A stretch of 64,000 bases of DNA. Source: Mobula hypostoma (Eukaryota). The stretch covers positions 102,426,001 to 102,490,000 of the forward strand of contig NC_086107.1 in NCBI RefSeq assembly GCF_963921235.1, in the 5' to 3' direction. The position numbers and the translations under genes are program-made. Under the pieces are notes generated by a model that saw only the letters and a list, made by a program, of their open reading frames with translations, had not been told where the DNA came from and did no database searches. Positions 13,342-63,255 of the stretch are shown one piece after another. The first letter of the stretch is position 1. Each line of letters begins with the position of its first letter.

Positions 13342-14003
13342 ATAGAAACATAGAAAATAGGTGCAGGAGTAGGCCATTCGGCCCTTCGAGCCTGCACCGC
13401 CATTTATTATGATCATGGCTGATCATCCAACTCAGAACCCCGCCCCAGCCTTCCCTCCATACCCCCTGATCCCTTTAGCCACAAGGGCCATATCTAACTC
13501 CCTCTTAAATATAGCCAATGAACTGGCCTCAACTGTTTCCTGTGGCAGAGAATTCCACAGATTCACCACTCTCTGTGTGAAGAAGTTTTTCCTAATCTCA
13601 GTCCTAAAAGGCTTCCCCTTTACCCTCAAACTGTGACCCCTTGTTCTGGACTTCCCCAACATCGGGAACAATCTTCCTGCATCTAGCCTGTCCAATCCCT
13701 TTAGGATTTTATACGTTTCAATCAGATCCCCCCTCAATCTTCTAAATTCCAACGAGTATAAGCCCAGTTCATCCAGTCTTTCTTCATATGAAAGTCCTGC
13801 CATCCCAGGAATCAATCTGGTGAACCTTCTTTGTACTCCCTCTATGGCAAGGATGTCTTTCCTCAGATTAGGGGACCAAAACTGCACACAATACCAGGTG
13901 TGGTCTCACCAAGGCCTTGTACAACTGCAGTAGTACCTCCCTGCTCCTGTACTCGAATCCTCTCGCTATAAATGCCAGCATACCATTCGCCTTTTTCACC
14001 GCT
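13342..14003 (-). mobile_element. Young 5'-truncated CR1-clade LINE
   Basis: Uninterrupted 151-aa ORF2 C-terminus (QFWSPNLRKDILAIEGVQRRFTRLIPG...RTRGHSLRV...FFTQRVVNLWNSLP) and a (TTTCTATG)n tail. Confidence 0.93.
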
Positions 14004-14841: not shown

Positions 14842-14985
<144 letters not shown>

Positions 14986-19836: not shown

Positions 19837-20320
19837 AATGTAAGGTGTTGTGCATTAGGGAGTCAGATCAGAGGGCCAACTAGAGCTTCCCTAAAGAACT
19901 GACGGCATTCAGGTTTACTTTCTTCCCTTAGACCAACATCACCAAACAATTAATAAAAAGCTCAAAAAGCACAAAAATGCTAGAGGAACTCAGCAGGCCA
20001 GGCAGCATCCATGGAAAAAGAGTACACTCGACATTTCAGGCCGAGACCCTTCAGCAGAATGGAGAGGAGAAAAAAATATATTTCCAGCATCCACGAGGAA
20101 TTCTGCAGATGCCGGAAATTCAAGCAACACACATCAAAGTTGCTTGATCAGAGGGATACCTCGACTGTACCTCTTCCTAGAGATGCTGCCTGGCCTGCTG
20201 CGTTCACCAGCAACTTTGACGTGCGTTGCTTGGATTTCCAGCATCTGCAGATTTTCTCTTGCTTGTTAATAACAATGTCAATCACTTTTATTTTACCCTT
20301 TGCCTTTTACCTGTTTGAGA

Positions 20321-20480
20321 GAATTAGATATGGCCCTTGTGGCTAGGGGGATCAGAGGGTATGGAGGGAAGGCTGGTGCAGGGTTCTGAGTTGGATGATC
20401 AGCCATAATCATAATAAATGGCGGTGCAGGCTCGAAGGGCCGAATGGCCTACTCCTGCACCTATTTTCTATGTTTTCTAT
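20321..20480 (+). mobile_element. 3' end of the same young CR1 family, opposite orientation
   Basis: About 7 differences in 150 nt versus the reverse complement of 13351-13500 (hand count). Confidence 0.9.
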
Positions 20481-22282: not shown

Positions 22283-22564
<282 letters not shown>

Positions 22565-32357: not shown

Positions 32358-32574
32358 CCATTCCAAATTTTCCATTGATGGACAACTCATCGTCATCGTT
32401 TGTCATTCCAGATATCGACTCGGACTCCAGATCTTTGTGCTGGCTCCGCTCCTCTTCTTCCATGCGCTCGTCACTCGATTCCCCGGTGGTGAAGTTCCCA
32501 TCACTGCTGCTGCATCGGTCCTCCAGGCTATCGTAGCCATCAAATAGTCCATAGTCGTCTTCTACAAAAGCCAT
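32358..32574 (-). CDS. L3MBTL2: L3MBTL2 first coding exon (acidic N-terminus); the exon extends 5' as UTR to 32592
   Basis: Acceptor ...gctgtttcag (CT at 32593-32594). ATG at 32574 in strong Kozak context (ggaATGg). Encodes MAFVEDDYGLFDGYDSLEDRCSSS...INGKFGM, resembling the LFGGYDS/MFDGYDS starts of L3MBTL2/MBTD1. Phase-1 donor G|gtacat joins the next exon to give GMATCEMCG. Confidence 0.85.
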
Positions 32575-33848
32575 TCCTGTGTCATGCTGCAGCTGAAACA
32601 GCAATGGGGGGAGAAACAAAAATCAATACAAGACTTAAACTGATGAAAGCTTCTGGGTCTGCAGTGTTAAGTTTGAACAACCATGATCCAAGTTCAACAG
32701 AGGAAGACAACATTCTGTACCTACAATGTTCCCCATTTTGTTTGTGTGGGCATGTGGCCAAGTGGTTAAGGCATTGGACTAGCGACCTGAAGGGCGTGAG
32801 TTTGAGCCCCAGCCAAGGCAATGTGTTGTGTCCTTGAGCAAGGCACTTAATCACACATTGCTCTGCAACGACACTGGTGCCAAGCTGTATGGGTCTTAAT
32901 GCCCTTCCCTTGGACAACATTGGTGTTGTGGAGAGGAGAGACTTGCAGCATGGGCAAATGCTGGTCTTCCATACAACCTTGACCAGGCCTGTGCCCTGCA
33001 GAGTGAAGACTTTCCAGGTGCAGATCCATGGTCTCGCAAGACTAACGGATGCCTTAATCCCCATTTTGTGACAGGCACTCACAACAGCATTTTCTTCCAA
33101 AGATTAGTTAGGCAATTGATGAATAGGAAGAGGTGAAGGTGGCATGGGGGGGCGGGGGGGGGAGAAAAGAAGATATGGGGGGGGTAGCTGATTTGCAAAA
33201 GAAAACAAACAGCAAATGCAAAAAAAACCCTAATAATAACAATAATAACTAAATAGTAAATAAGTAACACTGAGAACTTGAATTGAGGAGTCCCTGAAAG
33301 TGAGTCCATAGGTTGTGGAACCAGTTCAGTGTTGAGGTGAGTGACGTTTTCTATGCTGGTTTAGGAGCCTGATGGTTGAAGGGTAAAAACTGGTCCTGAA
33401 CCTGGTGGTGTGAGACCTTTCCCAGTGGCAGCAGTGAGGTGAGAGCACGGCCTGGACAGTGGACGTCATGATGAATGGATACTGCTTTCTTGTGGCAGTG
33501 CCCTTTGTATATGCTCAATGGTAGGGAGGGCTTTTCCTGTGATAGACTGAGCTGTATCCACCACTTTTTGTTGGCTTTCCCTATCTTGGGTATTGGTGCT
33601 TCAAACCAGGCAGTGATGCAACCATTCCACTGTACACCTTGAGAAGTTTGTCCAAATTTTAGATGACATGCTGAATCTATGCAGACTTCTGAGAAAGTAG
33701 AAGCAGTGCCGAGTTTCCCTTGTAGTGGCACTTACATGCCGATTCCAGGACAGACTCTCCGACACATTATGTGATGGTGAACTATTGCAGTCCCAGCAAT
33801 GGACTACCACCCTGGCATCGAAAGAGACATGAAGAAGATGATGGGAGA

Positions 33849-37740: not shown

Positions 37741-39339
37741 CTCTAGCTAAAGAAATTGCCCCTCATCTCTGTTCTAAAGGGGCATTCTTCTATTCTGAGA
37801 CTGTGCCCTCTGGTCCTAGACTCCCCCACCATAGGAGACATCTTATGCCATATAAAATGGCATCAAGGGTGGATTAGTATAATAAGTAGTTGATGGCTGG
37901 TGCAGGCGCAGTTGGCCAAGGGGCCTGTTTCCACACTGCATCTGAGACTCAGTAATTTAAGGCCTCGGTGTTGTTTTGCTGCCAGCGCTACTCAAACTCA
38001 AGCCGTCAGCTAATCTGTGGCAAATGCAGTGAAAAGCTCAACTCTACTCACACCAAAGGCTACATCTTCTGACAGCCACCCGCGCACCAAAATCACAGTG
38101 TCTGACAACTATTATATAAATTAGAGCTTAAAACAAACTTTGGATGTCAGCAATCTGAAAGAACAACAGAAAATACTGTTAATGTTCAACAGGCAATCAC
38201 TACACATAGGCATTTGGAAAGGTCAAATGGGATTAATGCGGACAGACAAAAAGCTCGGTAAGCTGCGATGGGCTGAAGGAATAAATTCTGTGCTGTGTGA
38301 CGTTATGACTGAGATGAGGCAGCAGAAACAGGCAACGGTTCTGGTGACGTGTCTTTGACTTGAAACATTAACTCTTGTTTCTCTTTCAGCACATACTACC
38401 CGATCTGAGTATTTCCAGTGTCTTCTTCGTTCCAATATTTTCTGCCTTTATTATGTAACTGAAATAGTGTTCAAGTTACAAAATTGGAAATCAATACATA
38501 CTGGCTGCATCATTTGCAATCGGAATATTGCAATGAAAAAGTCAGGGGCAGGTTTCAGAGCCCAAGGTAAACAGTTGTTTCTCAGAACAATTATCTTCTA
38601 TTCATCAGCAATTACTTTGATTGTCACGTGTAGCGAGGAACAGTGGGGAAAAACTACTTTGAATGGCATGCATTACAGCTCATTTTTAAAATTGTGCAGG
38701 GGAAAATTAACAGCATGCAGAATTCTGAATACAGTCACAGTAAAGGGGCAGGTACATAATAATGTGCAAGGCCACGTCGATGTAGATTGTGAGTTCAGAG
38801 TCTATTTTATTGAGCAGAGGAAAGGAGAAGTGTGCAGGGTGATTGCACAAAGTTATAAAACGTTTCAATAGCTATATCAAACAGATTCCATTCCTAAGCG
38901 GCGATGGGGCTGTTTTTTTTTTAAACGGATGTTAACACTACTGAACAAACTGACCATACGACACTGAGAATGTATGAAGTTATTGAACTGTTAATTATGT
39001 TATATTTTTTCATTACGATAAAGTTTATTAAATGTAAAAAAAAACAAATGGGCTCCAAGCAACAGTACAAACGCTTTTAAAACCAACCAACTCTCACTTC
39101 CTATACTATCTGGCAATAATATTAGGTTTTTATTTCCAAAGTGAAAGGTAGGAAAAAAAACTAACTTGAAGCAAGAGCATTAAAAATATTATTGACACAA
39201 TATGTAGGTATAGGGACATCAATTACAGAATAGGGGCTTTCATAAGAGAAGGGCAATCAATCATCGTTGAACTTGCAGCTTATCTTAATACAAAATATTA
39301 TTATTTTCAATCTATTTTAAAACAATTAAAAATAAAACT

Positions 39340-39760
39340 TACAATATTTTCCCCAGCAGATCCGTGTCCCGTGTATCTTGATTATTGAACCAAAATCACA
39401 TTGCTCCCATCTTAGGAAGAGCCACCGCGAAATAAGATGCCACCTTACTGGAGGAGACCTACATCCTCCACAACCAATGAACAGGGCTTATATTGAATGG
39501 GTAAAATGAGCTTGGGTGACAGAGCGTTCTGGGATATGTAGTCCATTGTAATTGGCGCTTTCGCACTGCTGTCAACGCACGCAAAATGCGGGAGGATCCC
39601 AGCAGGTCAGGCAGCAACTACAGTATAAAAATTAATAAACCGTCGAGGTTTCAGGCCAGAATCCTTCAGGATTTCCAGCGTCTGCAGATTTTCTCGTGTT
39701 TGTGGTTCACACTGCTGTCAACCGCTTTAGACGCCTCGTAAGCAGTTTTGAAACGATTCT
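39340..39760. promoter_or_regulatory. Candidate promoter of L3MBTL2
   Basis: CpG is locally retained, including inside an old repeat copy at 39578-39705. Motifs: TTTCGCGG (E2F-like, minus, 39425-39432), CTTCC (ETS-like), AAGATGG (YY1-like), CCAAT near 39474 and ATTGG at 39551. Confidence 0.5.
39343..39433 (-). other. Putative non-coding first exon (5'UTR) of L3MBTL2; 5' end approximate
   Basis: Consensus donor AATATT|gtaagt (AC at 39341-39342) in a CpG-retaining region upstream of the first coding exon. An in-frame TAA shows it does not extend the CDS. No transcript evidence available. Confidence 0.55.
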
Positions 39761-41150
39761 TTTCAAGCAAACTATTATAATCAATATGTTTATTTCTAAA
39801 ATATTCAAGGCATATATATTTGCAATTAGGTGATTTTTGTGGTTGTATCAGATTTTAAAAATGTGGGGTGGAACTCGATAAATTGTGTTGATAAATAAAG
39901 TAAAAACTGCAGATTCTGGAAAACTGAAATAAAATCAGAAAATGCTGGAAAACTCAGCAGTTCAAGCAGCATTGGTGGATACTGTCAACATTTAGGCTTC
40001 AAGACCCTGTATTGATCTGTTCTTGTGGGAGATGGGAGCTATTCCAAACTAAGGGTTCAGATATTTAAAACTCAAAAGTTCAAAGTAAATTTATTATTAA
40101 AGTACATATGTGTCGCCATAAATAACCATGAGAGAGATGGGACAATATTTTTTTAAATCTTTTGAAGAGTCATAAATCCTTGGAACTCTTCTTCAAAGGT
40201 CAGTGGACCCAAGAGCTTACTTTGAGGATGATATAATCCAGCTTCTAATTATAAGTGAAAGACTGACATGCAAAGGCTGGAGTTCAGATGGTGCTGGTGA
40301 ATCTGAGCACGACGGCACTTTGTGGTAAGGAATCTTACTATGACCATTCCTGAATGGCTTATGAATAAGCTTCAGGAAGGTGTCAATGGATAAATAATTA
40401 ATTATTGTCACATGCATGGAGCACAGTGAAAATTTTTGTTTTGCCTGCCATTCAAACAGGTCATTTTCCCACACCTCCACATCACTTACTGCCCATTATG
40501 CCGCTGGTATTTAGGGCAGCAATGAAGGTCCTCCATCTCTGGTGATGTTCAGGGCTTTCTTCATCATGTCAGTAGCTTCCTCTTGGTTTTCACTGCTGTC
40601 AGTCATACAAGTCCCGGGTGGAGACTCAGGAATACCGTCGCACTCAGATGTAGAAGGATTCTTCATTGCTGTTTCTGTAACAATTTGGTTTGACCAGTCA
40701 GGATTGTTAGCCCTGAGCTGAACCCCTGAACCTGGAGGACCGGTGGACCACTCTTAGTGTGGCCTCTACCCTTTGACCTGTTTGGCACAGGTGACCCTAC
40801 CAAGAGCCAAAGCATTAAGTCCAGCCATCATAGCTCTCCAGGCCACTGAGGCACGCAAGTGCCCAAACCACAACAAACTTATGGTCCTCTTGGTAACTAG
40901 CTCTGCTTAGCAGGAATAACATGACTTGTTCTGACCTGAATGTTCTATTTTATATGGAGCTGGATGTTGTAGCATAAGGCATATATTGAAATTTACAAAA
41001 AGATCACCCTAGCTTCTTACTTTCAATTCTACAGTCCTCTACTTGCCAGAGAGAGGGTGAGTGTGATCTGGTTTGCTCAATGCATTTTGCAGTCAAGGAG
41101 CAATGTCCAGTTCCAGACACCATTAATAACACTAATATTTAAATAGATGC

Positions 41151-41298
41151 ATTTCGCGCATCGCGCTTCCTGAGATGGGAGCAATGTGATTTTGGTTCAA
41201 AAATCAAGATACACAGGGCACGGAGCTGCTGGGAAAAATATTGTAAGTTTTATTTTTAAATTTTTTCAAATAAATTGAAAATAATAATATTTTGTATT
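41151..41298 (+). repeat. Inverted duplicate of 39287-39433 (putative exon 1 plus start of intron)
   Basis: GATGGGAGCAATGTGATTTTGGTTCAA(A/T)AATCAAGATACAC...AATATT|GTAAGTTTTATTTTTAA...TTGAAAATAATAATATTTTGTATT aligns with the reverse complement of 39287-39433. Confidence 0.95.
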
Positions 41299-42410
41299 TT
41301 TTTTATTTCAGCAAAGCAGTTTGATTAAGATATAAACATGGTATAGTAGTGGTGCGTTTTAAAAGATGCAAGACGAATGTGTGCAGCATTTTTTTTTAAT
41401 AAACATTAGTAGTTGTGAAATTCACTGCCTGTAGAATTGGTGGAAAAGGAAATTCGGGGCTTTCTACGGGACATTGGATGGACCCCGGAGGCAATCATTT
41501 TCTGCGTTATGATATTCTACAGAAGGCTTAGTTATGATAATATTACATAAAGTGAGCCACACAATAAAATAGAGAAAAAGAGGGGCCGTTGATAAATAGA
41601 GAAAACAAGTTCTGAAGTAGTCACTAACTTGGTAGGAAAAACGTTGTTATTGATGCAACACACTCAAAATGCTGGAGGAACTCAGCAAGTCAGGCGGCAT
41701 CTATGAAGAGGAAAAAAACAATCAATTTTTTGGACTGAGTCACTTCATCAGGACTGGAGAAGGGTCCTGCTTGAAATGCCAATTGTTGTTCCTTTTTATA
41801 GATGTTGTCTGGCCTGCTGAGTTCCTCCAGCATTTTGCGTTTGTTACTCTGGATTTCCAACTTCTGAAGAATCTCCTGTGTTTATTGTTATGGACATGGA
41901 GGATTTGGAGAAGGTGCAAATGAGGTTCACCAAGATGCCGACTATTAGCTATAGTGGCTGACTTCCAAGAGGACCACAGCCTTGTTGTGGGGATCGGAGG
42001 TTTGCCTACCTCAATGACCTGGAGAGTTATGTTGGCTGGAGTCAGGGCTTTCTGCTTTGGTTCTTGGTAAGGTCCCCCTTGCCAAACAGGTCAAAGCGTA
42101 GAGGCCAGACTGAGAGTGGTCCACCAGCCCTCCAGGTTCGGGGGTTCAGCTCAGGACTAACAACCCTGATTAGTCAAAAAAAATTGTTACAGTAACAGCA
42201 ATGAAGAATCTTTCCATACGGACAGATGGAGGACCTTCATTGCTGCCCTAATTGGCAGCAGCATAATGGGCAGTAATTATCAGAGGCTGAGGGGAGACAA
42301 GACTGGGTAGATGGGACTGACAGGGTTGCTCTGCAAGGAGCCAGTAAAGAATGGTCACCCCTGTATCATATGATCTTAAAAGAGGTGTTAAGTGATACTG
42401 GACCTCAAGT

Positions 42411-54896: not shown

Positions 54897-56742
54897 AAAG
54901 CTACTCAAGCTCTGTCAGACTGCATGGGGATTGTGAGTGAACAGACCTTTTCAAGTCCAGCCACAAATTCTCAATTGGACTAAGTTCTGGACTCTGACTT
55001 GGCCACTCCAGGACATTAACTTTGTTTTTAAGCCATTCCTATCTAGCTTTGGCTTTGTGCTTGGGCTCATTGTCTTGCTGGAAAACAAATCTCCCAAGTC
55101 ACAGTTGATTTGCAGACTGCAGCAGGTTTTCCTCCAGGATTTCCCTGTATTTTGCTGTAATAATTTTGCCCTCTACCTTACAAGCCTTCCAGGGCCTGCT
55201 GCAGTGAAGCATCTCCACAGCATGATACAGCCACCACTATGCTTCAAGGTAAGGATGGTATGTTTTTGATGATGTGCGGTGTGTGGCTTAGGCTAAACGT
55301 AGCATTTAGTCTGATGACCAAAAAGTTCAGTTTTGGTTTCATTAAACCACAGAGCCTTCTTCCAGCTGACTTCAGAATCTCCTATATGCCTTCTATCAAA
55401 CTCTAGCTGAGATTTCATGTCAGTTTTTTTTCCCAACAGTAGCCACCTCTTTGGCAGTCCTCCACAAAGCAGTGACTGGTGAATCACCTGGGCATCAGTT
55501 GTTGTATGCACAGTCTCTCCCACCTCAGCCCCCATCTTGCACGGTCACTCAGTTTTTGAGATTTACAGCTGTGCCATATTCTTTCCATTTTTTAATGATT
55601 GGCTTAACTGTTGGTTGGCATTCATCTGTCTCAAAGGACAATGCGTGATGATGATCATCATCACAAGCCTGGGCAGAAGGTATAGAGATCCTGAGCTGCC
55701 CAGTTGTCAAGATCCCCCTCTCGGCCTCACAGATGTAGTCCAAAGGAAAACTTATGAAGCAATACATTTGGCACCAACTTGGCTGCAGCAGCTCTGGAAG
55801 GAAGTTCAATGATGTCCAGCTGCCTTAGGGGCTCCACTCTGGATTTGCTGTCTGGGTTTACTCACGTGGCCTTCATCTCTCCCGAGGCTGCCCGCAAGGC
55901 AGTGGGGCTATTTACCCTTAGCTGGGGATCTGGTTCACAAGCACCAGGGTGTGTCCACACACCAGTGGGCCTGCATGCCTAGACCTCCTTCCCATCCTCT
56001 GTAGTTCATCTTGCATCTGAAAGGAGTTCAGTTTCCATGTGTCACCAGTGAGAAGACAGTGCATGAGGCTTGCTGTTGGAGAGGCTAAGTACTGGCAGGG
56101 AGAGCCTTACACATTCAGCTCTCCTTTTCACAAGACTGCCGGTCAGCAGTGGAAGCTGAAAGTGAGAGCAACAAGCACTACCCACTGCACTACCCACTAC
56201 ACTACCACACTAGACATGTTACAATAAACATTTTGACACTTAACTGTACTCCAAGGGATATTAAGTGACTTGGAAATTTTCTTGTTTCCATCTCCTGACT
56301 TATGCTTTTCAATAACCTTTTCACAAAGTTGCTTGGAGTGTTCGTTTGTCATCATGGTGTAATTTTCACCAGGATACTGACTCACCAGTAGTTGGACCTT
56401 CCAGATACAGGTGTATTTTAACTACAATCAATTGAAACACCTTGACTGCACATGGTGATCTCCATTGAACTAATTATGTGACTTCTAAAGCCAATTGGGC
56501 ACACCAGTGATGATTTGGTATGTCATTTTGAGGGGGGGGGAATACTTATGCAATCAATTATTTTGTGTTTTATATCTGTAATTACTTTAGATCACTTTGT
56601 AGAGTTCTGTTTTCACTTTAACACGAAAGAGTCTTTTTCTGTTGATCAAGGTCAAAAAAGCCAAATTAAATCCATTGTGATTCAATGTTGTAAAACAATA
56701 AAACATGAAATCATCCGGGGGAGGGGTGAATACTTTTTATAG
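54897..56742 (-). mobile_element. Degenerate, truncated Tc1-like transposon (second family), interrupted by an insertion
   Basis: N-terminus MMTNEHSKQLCEKVIEKHKSGDGNKKISKSLNIPWSTVK continues as PIIKKWKEYG after the insertion. WKKALWFNETKTELFG corresponds to the first catalytic-Asp motif, here mutated. Confidence 0.88.
55612..56238 (-). mobile_element. Non-autonomous retroelement (probably RTE-related) nested in the Tc1 copy
   Basis: 9-bp TSD CTTAACTGT (55603-55611, 56239-56247). The 3' region is homologous to the tails of the SINEs at 27559 and 32748. Confidence 0.75.
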
Positions 56743-61669: not shown

Positions 61670-63255
61670 CAATACTGTGCTAAAGTCTTCAGCACCCTAG
61701 ATTTTTCATATAAATGTTATTTTGGATTTGTTGTCTTCTGCATTAGTGTGTCAGTAGAAAAGAGCATGTTTTAGATTTCCAAACATCTGTTTTCCAAAAA
61801 ATTAAATGTTACAGAGAAATTTTTATATTTCATATTTCATTAAAGAAAGTAATATATTAAATAATAGACCACTTTTCAAATAAAAACTTGATTCCTTTGT
61901 GGGTAAATAGCCCAGTGCATGATTAATCAAAGATAACAGATGCTGATGATCAACGACAGAAAGAGTTGAATGAACTGAACTGATTAACTGAAACAGAAAT
62001 GGGTGTATAAAGAGTCAAACTGGGCAAAGGGCAATGAATTAAAAGGTGAGGGTGTGGCAGATGTAGCAGTTTAACCATACAATCATTAATTCTTACACCA
62101 TGGCAACAATGAGCATAGCAACAAGATACAAGGTGGCCATCCTGCATCAGCAACATCTCTCCCAGCAGAAATTTCACGGCAGACAGGACTGCCAAGATGT
62201 GCTATCCAAGCTCTCCTGAAAAAGCACAAAGAAATGGGCAAGGTGGAGGACCAGAAATGCAGTGGTTGGCATGGAAACTGAGTGCAGCAGACGAGAGATC
62301 CATCAAACTGACTTCCCTTCTAAATCAGAAGAATCCAGCACTGCTATCAACTCTGAACTCACTGAAACCACTGGAACCCAAGTGCACCCCTCTATAGTTC
62401 AGAAAAATCTTGTCAGAAGTGGTCTTCGTGGAAGAGTTGCTGCCAAAAAACGTTCCTCTGAAGTGGAAACAAAGCCAAGAGACTCAACTGTATACAAAAG
62501 CACAAGGACTGGGGTGCTGAACAATGGCAACAAGAGCTATGTCTGATTAGTCAAAATTTGAAATTTTTGGCTCAAACAGGAGGCAAGTTTCCATAGAAGA
62601 GCTGGAGAGTGCTATATGGACGAATGTCTTCAGCCAACAATGAAGCATGGTGGAGGTTCCCTGCAGGTTTTGGGCTTCATTTCTGCAAATGAAGTTGGTG
62701 ATCTGCTCAGAATTAATGCAATCCTCAAAGCTGAGAAGTACAAGCAGATTCTCATACATCATGCAATACCATCAGGGAGGCGTCTGATTGAATCCAACTT
62801 CATTCTGTAGCAGGACAATGACCCCAAACACATGGCTAAAGTCACAAAGAACTATCCTCAGCAAAAAGAAGAACCAGGAGTTCTGCAACGGATGGTATGG
62901 CCTATACAGAGCCCTAATCTCAATGTCATTGAGGCTGTCTGGGATTACTTGGAGAGACAGAAGCAAGTGAGACAGCTGTCTACAGAAGAACTTGGCAAGT
63001 TCTCCAAGATACTGTACTTGGAATAACCTACCAGCTGATTTTCTTATAAAACTACAAAACAGTGCACCTACGAGAATTGATGCAGTTTTAAAGGCAAGGA
63101 TTGGTCACACCAAATATTGATTTGATTTAGTTTTTTTACTGTTTACTGTTCTTTATAGTAAAATTTTGATATTTAGAAACATTTCATTATTTTTGAAAGC
63201 ACCTTCGCTTTACAGAATTTTTTTTACATGTACCTAAGACTTTTGCACACTACTG
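61670..63255 (+). mobile_element. Full-length degenerate Tc1-like transposon
   Basis: TA-flanked TIRs CAATACTGTGCTAAAGTCTT / AAGACTTTTGCACACTACTG. Frameshifted transposase at ~62100-63120 (LTETTGTQVHPSIV..GLRGRVAAKK; PTMKHGGGSL; QDNDPKH; WPIQSPNLNVIEAVWDYLER). Confidence 0.93.

Follow-up and report, generated by a model that had tools for sequence, protein, structure and literature searches.

In the 64,000-nucleotide (nt) stretch of Mobula hypostoma DNA analysed here, called the window throughout, two inverted copies of a short segment lie about 1.7 kb apart, one on the minus strand at 39287-39433 (copy 1) and one on the plus strand at 41151-41298 (copy 2). Copy 1 stands at the probable start of L3MBTL2, a gene read on the minus strand, and the pair is probably an inert, old local inverted duplication of the L3MBTL2 start region, comprising exon 1 and the first ~56-90 nt of intron 1. 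An earlier note on this DNA had seen in the pair a mirror-image divergent transcription unit. Its ~147-bp inverted copies are real, but the mirror-image unit falls away, since homology stops at 39433/41151 and the L3MBTL2 promoter was not copied beside copy 2; such a unit would need a promoter copy of its own, which copy 2 does not have.

Two inverted copies of one segment

Global alignment of the two segments gives 148 columns with 13 substitutions and one indel, hence 14 differing columns and an identity of 90.5%. In blastn within the window the pair was found at E ~3e-54, followed by a next-best match at E 0.003, so that the two inverted copies are homologous far above chance, as in a local inverted duplication. 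The differences fall in all parts of the segment, with five in the 5' 24 nt, five in the 67-nt exon core and four in the 56 nt of intron. As the earlier note had described, both copies carry an E2F-like site (TTTSSCGS at 39432, minus, and 41152, plus, which are two of the five such sites in the window), a four-codon upstream open reading frame (uORF; 39410, minus, and 41175, plus) and a GTAAGT donor (39342, minus, and 41243, plus).

39287..39433, minus: copy 1, with the start region, the probable L3MBTL2 exon 1 (to 39343) and the first 56 nt of intron 1; placed by alignment, the putative exon role by the X15 contig and a motif described below
41151..41298, plus: copy 2, inverted duplicate without the upstream promoter; placed by alignment, and colinear with both flanks in organism H, a relative
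41299..41326, plus: 28-nt block with a T-rich acceptor, missing in copy 1, with ATT microhomology at its ends; read from the sequence

Past the 148 nt, none of the nine flank comparisons gave homology above shuffles (in the best, 19 of 200 shuffles were equal or higher). At the intronic end the minus copy was found to lack the 28-nt block and to rejoin at ATTAAGATA, as had been described. This 9-mer occurs twice in the 128 kb formed by both strands of the window, exactly where the copies rejoin; its rarity is the sole support for the rejoining, as a flank test without the ATT overlap was non-significant (320/1000).

A short hairpin at 41187-41206 (plus), within the duplicated exon, is predicted for both copies, and the folding of the whole duplicated exon is not exceptional (z -1.5 and -1.8). 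Rfam gave no match, nor did a metagenome pattern scan. The inverted repeat pairs at 40486-40893 and 41955-42276, around copy 2, were considered as part of the event and set aside as copies of a dispersed family, 81-83% alike as are others of that family.

Copy 1 as the probable first exon of L3MBTL2

Nine L3MBTL2 exons were mapped by protein match on the minus strand of the window, and the N-terminus of the Mobula hypostoma protein matches the exon at 32358-32592 at 100%. In 15 of 15 protein models of rays and sharks the first methionine lies in this exon, exon 2; therefore any upstream exon is untranslated and exon 1 is non-coding. The same 15 models rule out a coding exon 1; in the plus copy a frame that is in phase with exon 2 is open, and in the minus copy there is a stop.

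32358..32592, minus: L3MBTL2 exon 2; protein match, with the start codon at 32574 and a piece of the X15 contig starting exactly at 32592
39337..39342, minus: GTAAGT donor, probable start of L3MBTL2 intron 1; a motif, its use putative
39343..39416, minus: putative exon 1 in the L3MBTL2 5' untranslated region (UTR); from the 74 nt of the X15 contig that lie 5' of 32592
39396..39410, minus: four-codon uORF with a purine at -3 and G at +4; read from the sequence
39530..39542, minus: THAP11/ZNF143 (TBS/SBS2) motif ACTACANNTCCCA, exact and non-duplicated; motif as given in the available part of PMC3627581

Transcript evidence comes from runs X15 and X20, presumed to be RNA, in the form of contigs. 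A contig of X15, 5471 nt in length, lies on exon 2 from exactly 32592 and carries 74 nt 5' of the acceptor. It behaves as spliced mRNA, because it runs past the exon 2 donor by 4 nt with one mismatch, as the start of exon 3 predicts. If the 74 nt come from copy 1, they reach 39416, just below CTCTTCC, and the contig does not extend into the intron AG, as fits a preceding exon that ends in ATT. Of the two copies, moreover, the minus copy alone is oriented so that it could be spliced in cis to L3MBTL2. The motif ACTACANNTCCCA lies 109 nt above copy 1, with no match near copy 2, and is the sole exact match in 128 kb of both strands, where 0.03 are expected. A CpG-retaining domain at 38000-39900 continues unbroken across copy 1, with a CpG observed/expected ratio (o/e) of 0.78 in 39434-39900. 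Together, the spliced contig and the TBS motif uphold the claim of the earlier note that one of the copies supplies L3MBTL2 exon 1, and the minus copy is very probably that non-coding exon.

The probable L3MBTL2 leader has its four-codon uORF a few nt below the putative 5' end and in strong context; AAGATGG, overlapping this uORF, is presumably a YY1-like motif. A second uORF, of seven codons, starts early in exon 2, and a tandem acceptor at 32587-32593 (minus) places a second CAG 6 nt inside that exon. UTR variants of L3MBTL2 exist, because one protein is common to two RefSeq accessions. At 39472..39478 (plus), in the non-duplicated promoter, lies what we take to be a CCAAT-box-like motif, which is weak, with 42 matches in the window.

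Age of the duplication

In organism H, an 882-nt contig is colinear with 40790-41678, differing by 81 substitutions in 889 and by 33 gap letters; 20 of these are deleted and 13 inserted in organism H, a split that follows from reading the gap column as letters, as held for each of the 18 pieces checked (of 32 listed). Because the contig is colinear and at most 20 letters are deleted, organism H possesses copy 2 with both its flanks, as well as some or all of the 28-nt block. The duplication therefore predates the split from a relative that is ~9% diverged. Divergence of the 40790-41678 region, at 9.1%, compares with 8.8% (232/2642; Fisher P 0.78) over five non-coding pieces elsewhere; an exonic piece and a piece in a repeat were removed from this background. 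The region of copy 2 is old and without visible constraint, a statement that holds for the 889-nt region as a whole rather than for the 148 nt by themselves.

The divergence between the copies is 8.8% (95% interval 4.8-14.6%), which fits an event that shortly preceded the organism H split, or an older one after which constraint on exon 1 or conversion slowed the divergence. In organism C, which is 5.3% diverged, a contig over 38413-39322 spans the 39286/39287 junction and, with no more than 10 inserted letters, leaves no space there for the 28-nt block. This intron 1 contig (run X9) ends inside copy 1, at 39322, which is 20 nt downstream of the exon 1 donor, and its first 187 nt lie outside the piece; the stop could reflect a larger indel or rearrangement within copy 1, or a non-displayed piece.

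Copy 2 and the question of a second transcript

The earlier note had pointed out that only the plus copy continues into an acceptor block, and both the 69-nt GT..AG interval and the AATAAA that it named were found in the sequence.

41243..41311, plus: candidate 69-nt GT..AG intron; read from the sequence
41398..41403, plus: candidate AATAAA; motif
41299..41650, plus: CpG-retaining stretch below copy 2; o/e 0.81, where the window as a whole has 0.30, Poisson P 0.011, the stretch having been chosen post hoc
39634..39933, plus: three AATAAA motifs (39634, 39894, 39928) that any transcript leaving the L3MBTL2 promoter divergently would face well short of copy 2

Chance supplies such an acceptor and such an AATAAA at several percent each. 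Acceptor scores equal to or better than that at 41311 occur at 0.63 per kb per strand, and an AATAAA lies within 100 nt at 6-10% of positions. The further claim, of a spliced divergent RNA or neighbouring gene beginning at the plus copy, found no positive support, given the missing promoter copy, the background divergence and the absence of a host-gene domain from the 130 open reading frames (ORFs) scanned. No plus-strand joint at the 41242 donor appears among the 15 joints listed of 10,831, a result in which contigs cannot show silence. The bin with most of copy 2 has a depth of 1.98 in X20 and 0.32 in X15; the four lowest intron bins are similar, at 0-2.7, and these depths were not counted as silence. 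The 0.32 in X15 is below the 3.7 which the exon 2 contig's 5' part would add if it were placed there.

Several observations weigh against an inert duplication. Three of the four CpGs of copy 1 are kept in copy 2, which has two extra, and CpG o/e is 0.97 in 41151-41650 with a sharp edge at 41151; this is more CpG than one would expect of a dead copy that had long been methylated. In about 5% of 400-nt windows the CpG o/e is above 0.68. The acceptor ending at 41311 ranks 81 of 8901 AG sites (top 1%) by a crude splice matrix, which gives the real exon 2 donor a poor score. Divergence between the copies is no larger than that from organism H, so that later or reversed copying fits too. Finally, the junction 39343-32592 is not among the 15 joints listed, all of them at repeats, and the assignment of exon 1 is therefore indirect.

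The first alternative treats copy 2 as a genuine, if weak, plus-strand start or exon, either with its own E2F-like, CpG-rich 5' end or reached by a divergent transcript from the L3MBTL2 promoter. The copied GTAAGT would then serve as a U1 site, through which a short non-coding RNA (ncRNA) is stabilised and spliced, joining 41151-41242 to 41312-~41420 or to a farther exon. Such a role accords with the donor, uORF and E2F-like site being intact in copy 2, with the CpG retention within and below it and with the rank of its acceptor; in the available parts of the sources, RNA polymerase II lies on both sides of SBS2-type promoters (PMC3627581), and the birth of promoters in mammals is accompanied by U1-site gain (PMC6172195). 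The surroundings speak otherwise: no promoter homology lies above copy 2, the 250 nt there (40900-41150) hold no CpG, and the copy 2 region diverges at the background rate. On the true promoter's divergent side three AATAAA stand within 400 nt; a divergent transcript would meet those at 39634, 39894 and 39928 first, which is the layout of a unidirectional promoter as described in the available part of PMC6172195. The 69-nt interval has an AATAAA inside it, at 41269, and no branch motif YTNAY at a usable distance, the only ones being at 41249 and 41302. The hypothetical spliced product, ~210 nt, has no closed ORF of more than 10 codons. A weak start at copy 2 is accordingly judged unlikely. It is similarly doubtful that a 148-nt inverted copy of the first donor and start region of a housekeeping gene was enough to found, or to leave via promoter capture, a spliced divergent RNA persisting in rays since before the 9% split; if true, such an RNA would be a dated natural case of transcript birth by U1-site gain through exon 1 duplication. 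A weak AG at 41092 (rank 1128/8901) would allow copy 2 to be a 150-nt internal exon, 41093-41242 (plus), not a first exon.

Origin of the two copies

In the reading of an inert duplication, 39287-39433 would have been copied in reverse to a site 1.7 kb upstream, most likely by a template switch during replication or repair, and the upstream promoter elements of L3MBTL2 would have been left out of the copy. The minus copy presumably kept the role of exon 1 under a promoter of the THAP11/ZNF143 type, as the motif and the contig suggest. The plus copy would have drifted, with its donor, uORF and E2F-like site as passengers of the copying. The 28-nt difference may stem from a later deletion at the ATT microhomology, which would have taken a competing acceptor out of the gene's intron, or from an imprecise return of the switch, two routes that are not separable here. 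By the available part of PMC7584159, the footprint would look no different had the spacer undergone a staggered-break micro-inversion, an event that would permit promoter capture.

Promoter capture is the next alternative, and a rather improbable one. In this scheme, the promoter and exon first served a plus-strand unit (copy 2 and 41299 onward), and L3MBTL2 exon 1 is derived, by a staggered-break micro-inversion of the 1.7-kb spacer or by an exon copy, leaving copy 2 as a disabled remnant. Inversions through staggered breaks end up flanked by an inverted duplication on each side (PMC7584159, in its available part), and the acceptor block and CpG-rich tail exist on the plus side only. Organism H has copy 2 with both flanks, its minus copy not being among the pieces listed, and the organism C contig, with its 187 nt outside the piece, ends within copy 1. 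But with both copy 2 junctions present in organism H any inversion predates that species, and in organism C the 28-nt block is already missing at the 39286/39287 junction. The CpG-retaining domain runs on across copy 1, and no plus-strand host gene was found, only four of the 130 ORFs having a Pfam match. The suggestion in the earlier note that the L3MBTL2 exon may be the derived copy is thus the less parsimonious reading.

The copy number bears on the last alternative. Exactly two copies of the 148-nt segment exist in the window. Relatives' DNA was aligned over 11.2 kb at 80% likeness (31 records listed, 456,298 further), and the bin that contains 123 of the 148 nt of copy 2 has a depth of 16.9 and 44.6 in two relatives, like other unique bins, compared with 1e4-1e6 in bins of short interspersed nuclear elements (SINEs). 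Because of this single-copy-like depth, a high-copy element or a terminal inverted repeat (TIR) is very unlikely; the many arm copies of a TIR transposon or dispersed repeat are not seen, and the multi-copy repeat that the earlier note had named as its own refutation did not appear. That the 148 nt are a dispersed repeat, a TIR or an assembly artefact is highly improbable. Inverted arms around a 1.7-kb spacer do have the layout of a non-autonomous element, but the window has no third copy, the spacer contains a promoter motif and ordinary repeats, 14 positions distinguish the copies, and in another species copy 2 runs colinear with its flanks.

As best read, the locus adds another small inverted duplication to those found next to promoters, and it helps to locate the L3MBTL2 start in rays. 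Were copy 2 transcribed and spliced, it would be a compact natural test of a start region and donor without the upstream promoter, and would also test the proposal that antisense transcription becomes new genes through the gain of U1 sites. No publication on this locus was found in the literature searched, outside which subscription papers and supplements lie.

Other features of the window

Upstream of 39.5 kb, a Pfam scan of 39.5-64 kb was given 130 of 165 ORFs of at least 55 amino acids (85/85 on the plus strand, 45/80 on the minus). Four of the 130 had matches, three to transposase domains and one to ALKBH8_N, the last of which we take to be a remnant of a long interspersed nuclear element (LINE). 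No host-gene domain was found among these 130 ORFs, nor a neighbouring coding gene on the plus strand, where the 85 ORFs gave two matches, both transposase; short exons would escape such a scan.

56200-56421, minus, and 62220-63023, plus: remnants of Tc1/mariner-type transposases; Pfam

A second two-copy inverted pair, 13342-13504 and 20317-20480 (164 columns, 94.5%), lies within L3MBTL2 introns on either side of the exon at 14866-14985. The pair adjoins LINE-like reading frames and probably represents the 3' end of a LINE. The exon near 22400 fits the L3MBTL2 of M. hypostoma better than that of M. birostris. In two Mobula species L3MBTL2 lies on contigs of 117-118 Mb, compared with 20-43 Mb in other rays and sharks, which is consistent with a chromosome fusion or an assembly difference.

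Comparison with known systems

Inverted duplications of 59-540 bp flank a 2-kb micro-inversion described in the available part of PMC7584159. Like the template-switch and staggered-break duplications in the parts available of PMC7584159 and PMC13100816, the present pair is a short inverted copy 1-2 kb from its source, with sharp ends and microhomology at one of them. Unlike those, the copied piece here is the start region of a gene with its first donor, and an inversion of the spacer is only hypothetical.

The 5' region of BRCA1/NBR2 is the nearest functional analogy. Its bidirectional promoter and the NBR2 transcript are said to be established, and its duplication is reportedly far larger. 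Both loci have a duplication of 5' non-coding exons beside a promoter, with an ncRNA on the divergent side at BRCA1/NBR2 (PMC8268747, in its available part). They differ in that the BRCA1/NBR2 transcript is proven, whereas here 148 nt were copied, the promoter was not, and any divergent transcript is hypothetical.

The L3MBTL2 start also resembles SBS2 promoters and the axis of U1 sites and polyadenylation signals (U1-PAS), as far as the available parts of PMC3627581, PMC6172195 and PMC3082894 describe them, with an exact TBS above a CpG-retaining start region. As in the U1-PAS axis (PMC6172195, available part), a donor lies close below in the sense direction and AATAAA motifs are clustered antisense. 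In contrast to those promoters, a further antisense donor stands 1.7 kb upstream here, placed by the duplication on the far side of the antisense AATAAA cluster.

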